DNA of 11,352 bases, taken from the IMG/VR virus record IMGVR_UViG_2585427742_000014. One strand, written 5' to 3'. Positions within the stretch are counted from its first letter, which is position 1, and each line of letters starts with the position of its first letter. The stretch is from a virus. Taxonomy: Duplodnaviria > Heunggongvirae > Uroviricota > Caudoviricetes. Below, piece by piece: positions 4,212-11,352 of the stretch. Made by a program: the position numbers and the translations under genes. The notes under the pieces were generated by a model that was not told the DNA's origin, made no database searches, and was given only the letters and a program-made list of their open reading frames with translations.

Positions 4212-4634
4212 TTAAAACGGTATGTTATCCCCGTACGGATCATCATTCCCCGCCTGTTGTTTTGCCCTGTTCAGCGCGTCAGTAGCCTGGCCCTGTTGAC
4301 CTTTTTTGCCGCCCAGTCGCGCCGTTCGCGCACTGATTACACTGTCTGCGATAACCTGCCAGCCCTGCCGCGTTTCTCCGTTCTGCCCAGTCCACTGGCT
4401 GATCTGCATGTTACCCGCCACGCTCAGGAGTTCACCCTTGCGGTGCCTTTCCAGTGCTTCGGCCTGTCTGCCAAATGCCAGGACGGATAACCACATCGTC
4501 GCCGTTCCGTCATCTGCCTGGCTGCACGGAAGGGGGACCGCCATACGCGCCAGCGTCATCGGTGTGCCCTTGCTGGTCTGTTTTACCTGCGGGTCGTCCA
4601 CCAGCCGCCCGTAAGCGGCTATCTGTGCTGTCAT
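4212..4634 (-). CDS. Single-stranded DNA-binding protein (SSB-like)
   Basis: 140 aa; an OB-fold-like pattern (GRLVDDPQ...TMWLSVLAFGRQAE...KGELLSVAGNMQISQWTGQNGETRQ) and an acidic C-terminal tip DDPYGDNIPF resembling the SSB DDDIPF tail. Confidence 0.75.
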   Translation of the reverse strand: MTAQIAAYGRLVDDPQVKQTSKGTPMTLARMAVPLPCSQADDGTATMWLSVLAFGRQAEALERHRKGELLSVAGNMQISQWTGQNGETRQGWQVIADSVISARTARLGGKKGQQGQATDALNRAKQQAGNDDPYGDNIPF

Positions 4635-4909
4635 GATTCCACCTCTCCGGTTTTAACGTTGATGGTTGTTACCTGTTCCGCTTCGGCAATCTCCCGTTCT
4701 GTCAGCGTGGCAAAGTTTGCCGCCGTCGTGGTCATGAATGCGCTTATCAGTTCGGGATGTGCTTTCGCGTATCCTTCCCCCGCGTGGCGGTCTATCGTTC
4801 TGATTGCCACCTTTAAAGCGTGCTCTGTCATGTCTAACGCGCGATATTTCGGTTCTGTTCTGTCTCTGCGTTTTTTGAGTGATTTATTAAATTTCCCTGA
4901 AGTGTGCAT
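4631..4909 (-). CDS. Hypothetical protein (up to 92 aa; start uncertain), translationally coupled to the SSB gene
   Basis: ORF track; ATGA overlap with the SSB start. No convincing RBS at either candidate start (4909 or 4831). Confidence 0.45.
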   Translation of the reverse strand: MHTSGKFNKSLKKRRDRTEPKYRALDMTEHALKVAIRTIDRHAGEGYAKAHPELISAFMTTTAANFATLTEREIAEAEQVTTINVKTGEVES

Positions 4910-4957
4910 ATTTATTTTTACCCCCTCGTTTAAAAAGTTTTGAGTTGTGCCTCCCCT

Positions 4958-5185
4958 TGTCTACCTTATCTACCTTAGTGGCCCTCATGCCAGTAATGGC
5001 GCGGCTTTCAGCGGGGTAGAGTGCTTTTATCCACTATCTACCCCGTGTCTACCTCCCTGTCTGACTCAGGTAAAATCAGGTAGAGAGGGTAGATAGTGGG
5101 TAGACAGTAAAAAAAAGCTATCTACCTAACTTAATGCACTGAATTAAATGTATTTTTCTTTACTCAGGTAGACAGGGTAGACAGC
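4958..5185. repeat. Iteron array with AT-rich segment; putative island replication origin just downstream of the primase gene
   Basis: At least 9 copies of GGTAGA(C/T/G)AG or its complement in both orientations: TCTACCTTA x2 tandem at 4960-4977, CTATCTACC 5035-5043, GTGTCTACC 5045-5053, GGTAGAG 5079-5085, GGGTAGATAG 5088-5097, GGGTAGACAG 5098-5107, GCTATCTACC 5117-5126, GGTAGACAG x2 tandem at 5167-5184. AT-rich stretch at 5107-5160. Confidence 0.7.
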
Positions 5186-5197
5186 AATTACAAAAAA

Positions 5198-7704: not shown

Positions 7705-7924
7705 GTACCCCTCCGCATTTTTTTTCGTTAGAAATAAGCGTTCTTCTTTCCTGTTCATCGCTCAGGAATACGCAGACCTCACCGCTAAGGCGTTTAAGTA
7801 AGCCGATGATTGCCCCTGATTCGCTGTCGGTCATCATGCCAGGGTAATCCTCTGCCAGTGCGCAAATAACTTCGATTTGGTGGGCGCGTTCTGCTGCCTG
7901 TTGTAGTGTGATTTCCTGACTCAT
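7694..7924 (-). CDS. Hypothetical small protein (76 aa)
   Basis: ORF track; ATGA overlap with the stop of the upstream 7921..8382 gene. Confidence 0.5.
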   Translation of the reverse strand: MSQEITLQQAAERAHQIEVICALAEDYPGMMTDSESGAIIGLLKRLSGEVCVFLSDEQERRTLISNEKKCGGVHVQ

Positions 7925-8382
7925 AAGCCTACCCCCTGACGAATACGGGCGACAAAAATCAGATGTGCGTGCGGCAGCTGTGCACGTGCTTCGCGCTCAG
8001 TGGCAGCGGTAACGGTGAATATTGCAATGCTGTCTGTCAGGCACTGCATAAAGCGCCAGACAAAATAAGGGCGTGCGGATACAGCCATGTGAAAGGCTCC
8101 CAGATGAATTTTAAGGAGTCTCGCTACTACGCTGTCAAACATGGTGGCGAGACGTAACAGGGTTGACAGACTGGTCATCTGGAAACCAGCGAGCACAAAG
8201 GCTCCCCCGTTACGCCCCGCCATAATGCGGGTATGGGTAGGTTTACGGACACAAAAAAACCGCTTATCGGATGTGGGCGGCTGTCCGCCAGATGTATTCA
8301 GGCTGTCAAACCCGGTCGCCATGTGGGCGACGGGGGAAGCATACAGCCCCGTGATAATTTTTTGCAAGCGGTTTTTACGCAT
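7921..8382 (-). CDS. Small protein, paralog 1, with a C-terminal motif shared with 8375..8578 (Icd-like/Ash-like small-protein type; start uncertain, alternative ATG at 8088)
   Basis: C-terminus YFVWRF...TAATEREARAQLPHAHLIFVARIRQG parallels the downstream paralog. The ATG at 8382 overlaps the upstream stop (ATGCGTAA) with AGGGG 7 nt upstream; the alternative ATG at 8088 has GGAG 8 nt upstream. Confidence 0.45.
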   Translation of the reverse strand: MRKNRLQKIITGLYASPVAHMATGFDSLNTSGGQPPTSDKRFFCVRKPTHTRIMAGRNGGAFVLAGFQMTSLSTLLRLATMFDSVVARLLKIHLGAFHMAVSARPYFVWRFMQCLTDSIAIFTVTAATEREARAQLPHAHLIFVARIRQGVGL

Positions 8383-8578
8383 GATATGACCCCTGGCGAA
8401 TACGGGCAGCGAATACCATCACGCAGCCAGCCGGAGATTGCTGACGCGCTTCCTGTTCGCTGGTGGCCTCGATGGTAATCACGCGCGGTTGTGCCGTGCT
8501 CAGGGCGATAAAACGCCAGATGTATTTATTCAGGTTGTACGAGTCCCGCCCTTGCGGGTGTCTGGTATAATTTCTCAT
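8375..8578 (-). CDS. Small protein, paralog 2 (67 aa), Icd-like/Ash-like type
   Basis: MRNYTRHPQGRDSYNLNKYIWRF...EATSEQEARQQSPAGCVMVFAARIRQG; GAGG 5 nt upstream of the ATG at 8578. This is the 3' end of the otherwise implausible 382-aa ORF. Family assignment is from memory and unverified. Confidence 0.5.
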   Translation of the reverse strand: MRNYTRHPQGRDSYNLNKYIWRFIALSTAQPRVITIEATSEQEARQQSPAGCVMVFAARIRQGSYHA

Positions 8579-8650
8579 AGCTACCTCGATACTTTCGCTA
8601 TCGTTGGTGGTTAGAAGCCCTGCATGTGTTCCAGCACTGCGGGGCTTTGC

Positions 8651-8755
8651 TGTACATACACCACAATCATTGGTGTGTGTACAGATTAAATTTAAGTGCG
8701 CTACAGTGTCAAGTGTTTTATTTACACACCTTTTGGTGTAATGTATGCACACCTC
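8651..8755. promoter_or_regulatory. Divergent promoter/operator region with inverted repeats built on CACACC / GGTGTG
   Basis: GTACATACACCA (8652-8663) and TGGTGTGTGTAC (8671-8682) form a 12-bp inverted repeat with one mismatch and a 7-bp spacer; further ACACACC / GGTGT / CACACC copies at 8724-8753. Lies between divergent genes starting at 8578 (minus) and 8775 (plus). Confidence 0.45.
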
Positions 8756-8774
8756 AAAATAACCGGACATTCTG

Positions 8775-9080
8775 ATGGCAACAGGAAATATCAACAGCAG
8801 ATCGCAAATGAAAAATATCCGCTTCCCCCATGATGTAATCGAGGAAATGGAAAATTCGAAAACGGAAGGGGAAACAATAGCCGCTTTCGTGATTACAGCC
8901 GTTCGCGGTGAGATCGCCCGCCGCCAGGCAGAAGGAAGCGGAGAAAATCCCCTGGTTTCTTCGCTCGATGCACTGGCGCAGGTGGAAAAAATCGGAGTCA
9001 AAGCAGCCGAGGAGATCGGGCAACTCATCACCGTCGCGCGTGAAGAACTCCAGCGTCGCAAGGCCAAAGAGCAGGAGTGA
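8775..9080 (+). CDS. Ribbon-helix-helix-like DNA-binding protein (101 aa; start uncertain)
   Basis: KNIRFPHDVIEEMENSKTEGETIAAFVITAVRGEIARR fits a beta-strand/helix/helix RHH pattern; non-repetitive charged composition. Weak SD at 8775. Confidence 0.55.
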   Translation: MATGNINSRSQMKNIRFPHDVIEEMENSKTEGETIAAFVITAVRGEIARRQAEGSGENPLVSSLDALAQVEKIGVKAAEEIGQLITVAREELQRRKAKEQE

Positions 9081-9137
9081 CCATCACCAGCGCCGTGGTG
9101 TAAGGTATTACGGCGCATTGCTATGCAGGACAACACA

Positions 9138-9311
9138 ATGACCGATAAAGAATTGACCAAAACATTATCACCGGCACGGAAAAGACGGCGCAGAAAGATA
9201 GAGCATGAATCAGAAAGATTCGCGCCATGTGCTTTTGCCCTTGAGCAATTCCTTAAAGAGTACAGGGAAAAGCGCTCATTGCAGGTATGGCAACGAACTG
9301 AACCAGACTGA
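9138..9311 (+). CDS. Small basic protein (57 aa from the ATG at 9138; the ORF starts at 9123)
   Basis: AGGA 7 nt upstream of the ATG at 9138; contains ARKRRRRK; followed by a strong terminator. Confidence 0.4.
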   Translation: MTDKELTKTLSPARKRRRRKIEHESERFAPCAFALEQFLKEYREKRSLQVWQRTEPD

Positions 9312-9406
9312 TTGCATTGCCCACCAGCCTGATAACGGCTATCATCCCCGTGCTTATGTTTGGGATCACACACACAAACGGCGCAGCGGGTTATCTGTTC
9401 AGAAAG

Positions 9407-9434
9407 GCGGCTCCATTTCGGGGCCGCTTTTTTT
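9407..9434 (+). terminator. Rho-independent terminator of the plus-strand RHH operon
   Basis: 8-bp stem GCGGCTCC / GGGGCCGC (one G-U pair), loop ATTTC, followed by T7 at 9428-9434. Confidence 0.7.
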
Positions 9435-9580
9435 ATACCTGAAAAACCCCAATTTTGTTGTTTTTCAGTTTCACCAGGGCGAACGAATCCCCGCCCACGT
9501 TCTGGCGTATATTCAATCTTCATGGTTATAGCTCTGTGTTCAGATGATTGATGTGTGGCGGCTGCGTGCCGCCAGCGTGA

Positions 9581-10134: not shown

Positions 10135-11352
10135 TTATTTTCTTCTGGCTACGGGTAGCGTGGTTACGTTTTCATGTGTTCCCGCCAGTATCCCTAACCG
10201 CTCCGTCCACATATCCAGCGCATTGCGTTTCGCATCCAGATAACGGGAATGATTATAAACTCGCTGCATTCCTGGCATCTGGTGGCCTGTAAGCTGCTCC
10301 ACGACATGCGGATCAACGCCTAAATCGTTCAGCATGGTTGTAAAGGTGCGCCGGATGTCATGCAGTGACCAGTGAGGGTGATTAAGCCTCCTGTGCGCTA
10401 ATCTTCCATACTGCGATACGCTGGCCTCCTGTTTCACTTCCCCCAGCAATAAGCCCGTGTGCCTGTTCTGCTCCACCAGCTGCGTGACGAACGGCAGGAT
10501 CGCTTCCGGTATGGGCCGGAATATTGCGACCTTCGTTTTGCTGTGCTCCTTCGGAACGGTCCATAGCATTTCCGTAAAATCCCACTCCCCGATCTCCGAT
10601 AACCTCAGTTCTACCGTTCTGGCTCCGAAGACAATCAGGAGGCGGATTAACGCGACGTAGTAAGGGGAGAATATTTTTTTGTCCAGTGCCTGCAATAATT
10701 CGCCAAGTTCTTTGTTACTTAAGACACGTTCGCTTATATCCGGTTTTTTCCCAACGTCCGCCACGTTCAGATCGTCCAGAACGTTGCTGATTGCATAGCG
10801 CCGCCTACGGCAGAACTTAAGCGCCTGTTTGCACGCCTGTAGCACGAATCCGGCAGTAACAGGCGTTCGCTTTGCCACCTGGTCAAAACAGGCCAGCCAG
10901 TGCCGTAGCTCGCATTTATCCAGCGGCATAGCACCAATCTGCTGTATTACGTGATTATTAAGTCGCCTTTTCAGGGCGATATAATCCACGCGGTTTTCCT
11001 TTACGTAATACTCAAGCCAGTAGGTGAGCGCATCGCCAACCGTTACGGGCTTTAACGCTTCCTGTACGGTGTAATTCATCTCATGACGTGGATTTTTCCC
11101 CTCAGCCAGCCATGTGCGACACTGTGCGGCTTTTTCCCTGGCTGCTTTCAGGCTCAGATCAGGATAACTTCCCAGCTTAATGCGTTCGGGTCGTGTCTCC
11201 CTTCCCGTTCCGGCCCTGTATGTGAAATACCAGGTCAATTTCCCTGATGTTAAATATTTCACGCTCAGGTTTCCGCCATCACTATAAAACGTGTTTTTCT
11301 CCGCTGGCTTACCATGAAGTTTCCTTAGCAAGGTATCGCTCAGTTTGTTCAT
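10135..11352 (-). CDS. int: Tyrosine site-specific integrase, P4 / CP4-57 type
   Basis: 405 aa; N-terminal arm-binding-like region (LSDTLLRKLHGKPAEKNTFYSDGGNLSVKY), catalytic-region motifs HDIRRT and RVYNHS. The start codon sits at the window edge. Confidence 0.9.
   Translation of the reverse strand: MNKLSDTLLRKLHGKPAEKNTFYSDGGNLSVKYLTSGKLTWYFTYRAGTGRETRPERIKLGSYPDLSLKAAREKAAQCRTWLAEGKNPRHEMNYTVQEALKPVTVGDALTYWLEYYVKENRVDYIALKRRLNNHVIQQIGAMPLDKCELRHWLACFDQVAKRTPVTAGFVLQACKQALKFCRRRRYAISNVLDDLNVADVGKKPDISERVLSNKELGELLQALDKKIFSPYYVALIRLLIVFGARTVELRLSEIGEWDFTEMLWTVPKEHSKTKVAIFRPIPEAILPFVTQLVEQNRHTGLLLGEVKQEASVSQYGRLAHRRLNHPHWSLHDIRRTFTTMLNDLGVDPHVVEQLTGHQMPGMQRVYNHSRYLDAKRNALDMWTERLGILAGTHENVTTLPVARRK

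Follow-up and report, generated by a model that had tools for sequence, protein, structure and literature searches.

We analyzed the viral record IMGVR_UViG_2585427742_000014, an 11,352-bp stretch of DNA (referred to as the window), and conclude that the repeat-rich segment at positions 4957 to 5184, directly downstream of the gene for the replication initiator Pri-Rep, is very probably the vegetative replication origin of a phage-inducible chromosomal island (PICI) of the EcCICFT073 type from Gram-negative bacteria. A sequence-only reading had placed an iteron-rich origin in a gap of ca. 290 bp after a primase gene. Its coordinates proved accurate, the gap being 288 bp long (4910 to 5197) and lying between the stop codon of Pri-Rep and the start of an open reading frame (ORF) for a 92-aa protein, both of which are annotated coding sequences (CDSs) in an identical RefSeq record. 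The finding is real and its interpretation correct, and it was already published in 2018 for the EcCICFT073 family, with a description and test of a 96%-identical EcCICFT073 region.

A homologous region with published origin activity

That work (Fillol-Salom et al. 2018, ISME J; PMC6092414) assigns the origin (ori) to the region directly 3' of the replication initiator gene, and the legend of its Fig. 2a describes the EcCICFT073 ori as two iteron sets around an AT-rich region. EcCICFT073 was tested there with pri-ori, pri-delta-ori, and delta-pri-ori plasmids. At the restrictive temperature, colonies were obtained with a thermosensitive plasmid carrying the EcCICFT073 rep and putative ori, whereas its delta-rep version yielded zero colonies and its delta-ori version significantly fewer; both parts were needed. 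One of the published deletion primers, EcoCFT073-pri-4c, includes GGTAGACAGGGTAGACAG / GTATTTTTCTTTACTCAGGTAGACAGGGTAGACAG, which corresponds to positions 5141 to 5175 of the window plus the start of the last iteron. Later papers likewise place ori downstream of pri.

The gap in the window and the corresponding region of EcCICFT073 (NC_004431.1) share 96% DNA identity over 352 aligned columns. The EcCICFT073 gap is also 288 bp long and has all 11 GGTAGA sites at the same offsets, and the dozen or so point differences fall mostly in the spacers or at the Y position of the iteron. At the protein level, the two Pri-Reps are 94% identical, with nearly all differences in the first 100 residues. The arrangement that characterizes EcCICFT073-type origins is found in the window, where the iteron pair at 5167 to 5184 and the sites at 5079 to 5126 flank a segment of 78% AT at 5127 to 5166, in agreement with the earlier description of repeats flanking an AT-rich stretch.

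Layout of the iteron array

With up to one mismatch allowed, GGTAGAYAG matches 14 times in the window, compared to a mean of 2.15 and a maximum of 6 in 200 shuffled sequences, and 10 of the 14 matches lie inside 4957 to 5184. The hexamer GGTAGA occurs 12 times (2.6 expected), 11 of them inside 4960 to 5181, and the only remaining one is a lone copy at 10610, so that the island has no second cluster. The iterons are present in both orientations. These counts bear out the claim of at least nine copies of a GGTAGA(C/T)AG-type 9-mer in both orientations, and the two tandem pairs claimed with them were recovered at 4957 to 4974 (minus strand) and 5167 to 5184 (plus strand), each with 9-bp spacing (Table 1).

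The gene strand serves as reference for the array; on it the iteron has the sequence TGTCTACC or TATCTACC, and offsets are given as nucleotides downstream of the Pri-Rep stop codon, toward lower coordinates. Read in this direction, the array consists of a 2-1-3 unit (unit I) followed by its mirror image (unit II). The first pair begins 14 nt past the stop codon, an offset matched in related loci bearing other words, and a lone iteron at the offset equivalent to 5015 to 5023 is also found in related loci. Near the center of the dyad, GTCAGACAG at 5057 to 5065 is perhaps the degenerate third member of the mirrored triple, a position at which the island EcCIRM13514 has a full third copy.

Because the array is mirrored and its iterons are inverted, the gap contains long imperfect inverted repeats and has a low single-strand folding energy (z = -4.1). 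This energy was considered as a sign of an RNA and rejected, since the inverted iterons account for it, and Rfam detected no RNA family in the gap. Regarding duplex stability, a 40-bp segment overlapping the AT-rich spacer (5123 to 5162) is among the least stable 0.8% of all 40-bp segments of the island by nearest-neighbor energy, and six other segments of the island equal the spacer in instability.

Conserved geometry and variable iteron word across the family

For a family-wide survey, one genome per species was scanned with an alignment of five family members, which gave 80 loci; at each of them the 320 nt after the stop codon were taken and the most repeated 8-mer was identified. At least six copies of the top 8-mer were found in 57 of 83 sequences, and 37 of these 57 showed a 2-1-(2/3) pattern, mostly starting within ca. 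40 nt of the stop codon. The sequences with the 2-1-3 layout come from many Enterobacterales and from Aeromonas and comprise at least 36 related loci besides the window. In nearly all 37, the single iteron follows the second member of the pair at a distance of 43 to 48 nt, and the first iteron of the triple follows 17 to 24 nt after that. The spacer between pair and single iteron measures 35 to 40 nt, again in nearly all of them, with a mean AT content of 75% versus 63% for the whole 320 nt, and its sequences are unrelated across the 37 loci. The iteron word itself varies by locus (GGTAGA, GGTGAA, ATGAACAC, GGTATACA, GGTGCACAG, and others), and loci with CGGACAGTT or GGTGGACAG repeats have a variant order. 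Conserved geometry combined with free sequence is what a site of protein assembly predicts.

A reduced arrangement was seen after many long alpha-type genes (ca. 805 aa, with a zinc ribbon; loci L031 to L049 and others from Xenorhabdus and Photorhabdus), which are followed by only three to five copies of GATGTATAG in a ><< pattern at offsets of ca. 70, 91, and 102. These loci may have a reduced origin; alternatively, their flanking pairs may have diverged beyond what a search with one mismatch can find.

We ranked the loci by similarity to the winged helix of the window initiator (residues 486 to 580). Where this domain is at least 45% identical to that of the window, the iterons are GGTAGA or GGTAGG at all loci except L075 and L081 from Aeromonas, with helicase identities of 52 to 73%. 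Loci in which the helicase is 64 to 70% identical but the winged helix only 26 to 33% have other iteron words. At matched helicase identity, pairs of loci sharing the same word have a higher winged-helix identity in every bin. These comparisons support the view that the iteron word tracks the C-terminal winged helix of the initiator, a domain homologous to the origin-binding domain of P4 alpha.

On a shorter evolutionary scale, 4 of 66 GGTAGA columns are variable among nine E. coli and Shigella copies, versus 22 of 129 spacer columns (Fisher p = 0.04), a slight indication of constraint on the iterons within E. coli. A copy with 71% identity (L093) has kept all sites.

The GC-rich motif of the second spacer (CTSAAAGCC..GCCAnnnnTGG) is conserved in Xenorhabdus, Rosenbergiella, Symbiopectobacterium, and Raoultella origins of the GGTAGA class and is also kept in the 71%-identical E. 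coli copy, whereas GGTGAA-class origins have an AT-rich spacer at this place. The idea that this GC-rich spacer forms a conserved hairpin was rejected: no consensus structure came out of RNAalifold, and folds of the individual sequences contradict each other.

The initiator protein

Pri-Rep is made up of an orphan N-terminal domain (residues 1 to 130), D5_N, a superfamily 3 (SF3) helicase (DUF5906), and a C-terminal winged helix (488 to 579). Among structures in the PDB, residues 188 to 432 match the helicase of SaPI5 PriRep (7OLA, E 9e-15), and residues 488 to 579 match the C-terminal domain of P4 alpha (1KA8, E 7e-7), which we take to be the winged helix of Yeo et al. (2002) that binds the origin. 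Pri-Rep owes the label "primase" to TIGR01613 ("primase_Cterm"), an entry that spans the helicase part. Pfam finds neither Zn_Ribbon_Prim nor Toprim in Pri-Rep, unlike in P4 alpha, which has the primase module Zn_Ribbon_Prim plus Toprim_3, and the first 140 residues have no Pfam match even at E values up to 10. Homology of this N terminus to the primase module of P4 alpha was rejected at the sequence level, with an hhalign probability of 0.1% against the first 400 residues of long proteins of the alpha type. The AlphaFold model of residues 1 to 150 (pLDDT 87, pTM 0.80) has a four-strand alpha/beta fold. The positions expected for the acidic residues of Toprim are not conserved among homologs, and the same N-terminal domain, with 61% identity, heads the AAA_25 helicase of the island EcCI042. 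Judging by the model, the domain might be a degenerate Toprim-like adaptor module.

Given that the zinc-ribbon and Toprim module of P4 alpha is absent, "initiator-helicase" is a safer name than "primase-helicase." The earlier view of a satellite-like origin with a cognate initiator-primase is therefore upheld as far as an iteron origin served by the upstream initiator is concerned, on the grounds of EcCICFT073 homology, conserved geometry, and covariation, and is not upheld for the term primase. It is rather doubtful, if conceivable, that the compound origin goes beyond a doubled P4-type unit, with the GC-rich motif in the half distal to the Pri-Rep gene and the degenerate Toprim-like domain acting as a separate, undescribed cis site and an adaptor through which PICI origins would draw in a primase of the host or helper. 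The notion of a separate cis site arises because the motif is conserved across genera only in GGTAGA-class origins and the N-terminal domain is shared with an unrelated AAA_25 helicase.

Proposed mechanism of initiation

By what is known of the family, helper-phage induction and excision would be followed by production of Pri-Rep from the gene directly upstream of the array. Its winged helix would then bind the 8- to 9-bp iterons (TGTCTACC on the gene strand), as suggested by homology to P4 alpha and by the covariation. The protein would encounter its sites as a unit of two iterons, AT-rich spacer, one, and three, and then as the mirrored unit of three (two), one, spacer, and two, with a phasing of 9 to 11 bp that would set adjacent sites on nearly the same face of the helix. 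By analogy with SaPI (Staphylococcus aureus pathogenicity island) Rep and P4 alpha, Pri-Rep, as a self-loading SF3 helicase, would assemble on the phased sites of units I and II and open the 40-bp AT-rich spacer without a separate loader. Replication would continue with the single-stranded DNA-binding protein (SSB) of the island and the host polymerase. No primase catalytic module that would account for the primers is recognizable in Pri-Rep.

Several points weigh against assigning the origin to this segment. The experimental proof of replication belongs to the 96%-identical EcCICFT073 copy with its own initiator gene and not to the window sequence. Deletion of the EcCICFT073 ori lowered colony numbers and is not reported to have abolished them. 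Binding of GGTAGA by Pri-Rep is something we infer for all members of the family, the covariation counts are not phylogenetically independent, and loci L024 (Escherichia ruysiae) and L065 (Kluyvera georgiana) are exceptions to them, with a GGTGAA-type winged helix but CTGTCTAC-type repeats. The second spacer is GC rich, so units I and II are not equivalent, and Pri-Rep has no recognizable primase catalytic domain that would explain the priming step. As a separate observation on L024 and L065, their winged helix has a PDKGR insertion, which is shared by the Serratia CGGACAGTT loci, and their repeat order differs.

Alternative roles of the array

The next gene, the 92-aa ORF, directly follows the array, with 48 nt between the end of the last pair and its start codon, and in the absence of a predicted terminator after Pri-Rep transcription crosses the repeats. 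Iterons of plasmids, moreover, often double in autoregulation and copy control. The repeats might then be mainly a transcriptional operator or autoregulatory array through which Pri-Rep or another island regulator controls the downstream operon (92-aa ORF, ssb, and capsid genes) or the copy number. We judge this very unlikely. A promoter scan found no sigma-70-like promoter on the gene strand, its sole match being on the opposite strand and at chance level. The 2-1-3 geometry with an AT-rich spacer of 35 to 40 nt is identical to that of the mapped P4 ori, an element that does not precede a gene cluster, and plasmids could not do without the homologous EcCICFT073 fragment for their maintenance. 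A regulatory role may nonetheless exist on top of origin function.

Less probable again, and given only a slim chance, is an auxiliary cis element similar to P4 crr, an enhancer located after the alpha gene, with initiation at a separate origin elsewhere in the island. The precedent is that in P4 the element directly after the alpha stop codon is crr and not ori, which is ca. 4.7 kb away. However, apart from the lone copy at 10610 the island offers no second cluster, the layout fits the 2-1-3 arrangement of P4 ori and not the 120-bp repeat of crr, and the pri-ori fragment of EcCICFT073 alone sustained replication.

Integrase arm sites and terminase-binding sites, too, can have short repeats in both orientations. 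The chance that the array serves packaging or recombination (as cos, pac, or attachment [att] arm sites) and not replication is nevertheless close to negligible, as the att core (129 to 137) is far from it, the repeat word covaries with the winged helix of the helicase and not with the integrase, EcCI042 has the same att site with different repeats, and cos sites are reported as separate sequences in the legend of Fig. S5 of PMC6092414.

Distribution and significance

The gap containing the predicted origin is present in 313 of 5,426 complete E. coli genomes at 91.7 to 100% identity and is unannotated in all of them; Nissle 1917, CFT073, and the ATCC 25922 lineage are among the carriers. A DNA search of the gap against a phage collection gave no match. 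Plasmids hold essentially no relatives of the origin, with three matches, one of them a 98% copy. Among E. coli records, CP088587.1 (32.6 kb, typed as a non-mobilizable plasmid) has a 98.4%-identical copy of the origin at 17532 to 17784; this record may represent a PICI in excised or concatemeric form, or else an assembly error.

The origin has little weight as a discovery, and its practical value is in annotation, the element being unannotated in every carrier. A fixed 2-1-3 layout right after a P4-family helicase gene provides a simple annotation rule for such origins. The same rule predicts the pairing of initiator and origin, which is of use for PICI-based delivery vectors and for replicon compatibility between satellites. 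Incremental additions to what was published may be the finding that the layout is that of P4 ori, the covariation of iteron word and winged helix across the family, and the conservation of a GC-rich motif in the second spacer.

The island and its gene content

The window is a complete EcCICFT073-type PICI of ca. 11.4 kb inside E. coli tqsA. An identical copy is found in tqsA of E. coli strain 300033 (RefSeq record). The window starts within the 5' fragment of tqsA and has the published att core, ATAACAGCA, at 129 to 137; gene set and att site match the E. coli PICIs listed in Table S1 of PMC6092414. All sizeable genes, including int, alpA, and pri-rep, run in one direction on the minus strand (Table 1), and the island SSB probably belongs to the replication module.

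Table 1. Features of the iteron array and of its surroundings in the window (offsets in nucleotides past the Pri-Rep stop codon)
Feature	Coordinates	Strand	Remarks
Tandem iteron pair, GGTAGACAG twice, 9-bp spacing	5167..5184	+	Offsets 14, 23; "2" of unit I; direct on gene strand
AT-rich spacer, 40 bp, 78% AT	5127..5166		Candidate DNA-unwinding element
Single inverted iteron GGTAGATAG	5118..5126	-	Offset 71; "1" of unit I
A8 tract (T8 on gene strand)	5108..5117		Between single and triple iterons; read from sequence
Triple iteron GGTAGAGAG, GGTAGATAG, GGTAGACAG, spacings 9 and 11	5079..5107	+	Offsets 91, 102, 111; "3" of unit I; direct on gene strand
Possible degenerate iteron GTCAGACAG	5057..5065	-	Near dyad center; read from sequence
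Iteron pair GGTAGATAG, GGTAGACAC, 11-bp spacing	5034..5053	-	Offsets 144, 155; unit II; inverted on gene strand
Weak single iteron GGTAGAGTG, 2 mismatches to 9-mer	5015..5023	+	Offset ca. 177; "1" of unit II; eleventh hexamer copy
GC-rich spacer of unit II, 40 bp, 42% AT	4975..5014		Gene-strand motif GCTGAAAGCCGCGCCATTACTGGC
Tandem iteron pair GGTAGACAA, GGTAGATAA, 9-bp spacing	4957..4974	-	Offsets 223, 232; "2" of unit II; inverted on gene strand
Tyrosine integrase	10135-11352	-	Window gene list
Icd-like ORFs, DUF4222 protein		-	Window gene list
Pri-Rep initiator, 584 aa	5198..6952	-	Pfam D5_N, DUF5906, Pox_D5
Shine-Dalgarno GAGGGGG of the 92-aa gene	within 4915-4930		
92-aa protein, function unknown (phrog_1231)	4631..4909	-	First gene past the origin; annotated CDS
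Island SSB	4212..4634	-	Pfam SSB E 4.9e-15; RefSeq annotation
Lambda-E-type major capsid protein, decoration protein		-	Window gene list

Rfam identified a C4 antisense RNA at 8140 to 8227 (minus strand; 72.6 bits, gathering score 45) and an a1/b1 target of C4 RNA at 8295 to 8344 (minus strand; 46.8 bits). Both are located within or beside the Icd-like ORF at 7921 to 8382 and make up an RNA immunity module of the P1/P7/P4-CI type in this PICI. In place of the 382-aa ORF at 8375 to 9523 (minus strand), the RefSeq copy has a short Icd-like protein and a fragment of a pseudogene, and its opposite strand bears a YlcI/YnfO gene. The variable zone between alpA and pri-rep has a decayed or mosaic appearance.

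Comparison with known origins

A classical iteron plasmid origin (pSC101, R6K, F, or P1), with tandem iterons of 17 to 22 bp, DnaA boxes, and a WH1-WH2 Rep, was considered and rejected, as the repeats of the window are 8 to 9 bp long, stand in both orientations, and go with an SF3 initiator. A DnaA box, TTATCCACT at 5027 to 5035, was also rejected, box-like matches being at chance level (4 found versus 2.5 expected).

SaPI Reps are self-loading SF3 helicases whose C-terminal winged helix recognizes short iterons directly downstream of rep around an AT-rich center (PMC9371898). The SaPI origin resembles that of the window in this position, in its 6 to 12 short iterons around an AT-rich center, and in the SF3 initiator with a winged helix. 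However, the SaPI iterons have 5 to 6 nt versus 8 to 9 nt in the window, sequence similarity is confined to the helicase core, and the fixed mirrored 2-1-3 geometry of the window is of the P4 type.

For P4, the annotated record NC_001609.1 was used. Its ori has six type-1 repeats arranged 2-1-3, with start-to-start distances of 10, 43, 22, 11, and 10, compared to 9, 48, 20, 11, and 9 in unit I of the window and 10, 43, 20, 12, and 8 in EcCIRM13514. The helicase and winged helix of P4 alpha and Pri-Rep are homologous, with 40% identity over Pri-Rep residues 141 to 579. In both systems the iterons are 8-mers of the form TGTnnnCC, arranged 2 / ca. 45 / 1 / ca. 20 / 3, with triple spacings of 10 and 11 in P4 ori and 9 and 11 in the window, and in both an iteron-bearing element directly follows the initiator gene, crr in P4 and the array in the window. 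The two differ in the iteron word, TGTCTACC/TATCTACC in the window versus TGTTCACC in P4, a word absent from the window gap. P4 has an ori and a distant crr, whereas the window has a single compound origin with a mirrored second unit, and no terminator separates gene and repeats in the window, unlike in P4.

Other satellites combine these properties in different ways. EcCIRM13514 and the phage-like element vB_KppS-Ant have, like the window, a short Pri-Rep (42 to 48% identity; 48% for EcCIRM13514), and their iterons stand in the same layout at the same offsets from the stop codon, but they use the P4 word TGTTCACC, and their winged helix is just 33% identical to that of the window. EcCI042 (L003; E. 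coli 042, NC_017626.1, 5725 to 5924) has the same tqsA att site and flanking genes as the window, with a RepA-family AAA_25 helicase in place of Pri-Rep, followed by a 200-bp gap with six AAGTGAG repeats (AAGTGAGG) around an A-rich center and no GGTAGA. The two islands, otherwise syntenic, have thus had the module for the whole replicon swapped.

EcCICFT073 differs from the island of the window in its integration site (ycfD-phoQ versus tqsA, the latter as in EcCI042 and EcCIK1516) and in its perC gene, which is not found in the annotated copy of the window island. The two have in common an ori directly 3' of pri-rep and the gene order int, alpA-type helix-turn-helix gene, Icd-like genes, DUF4222, pri-rep, ori, ssb, capsid E, and decoration protein.
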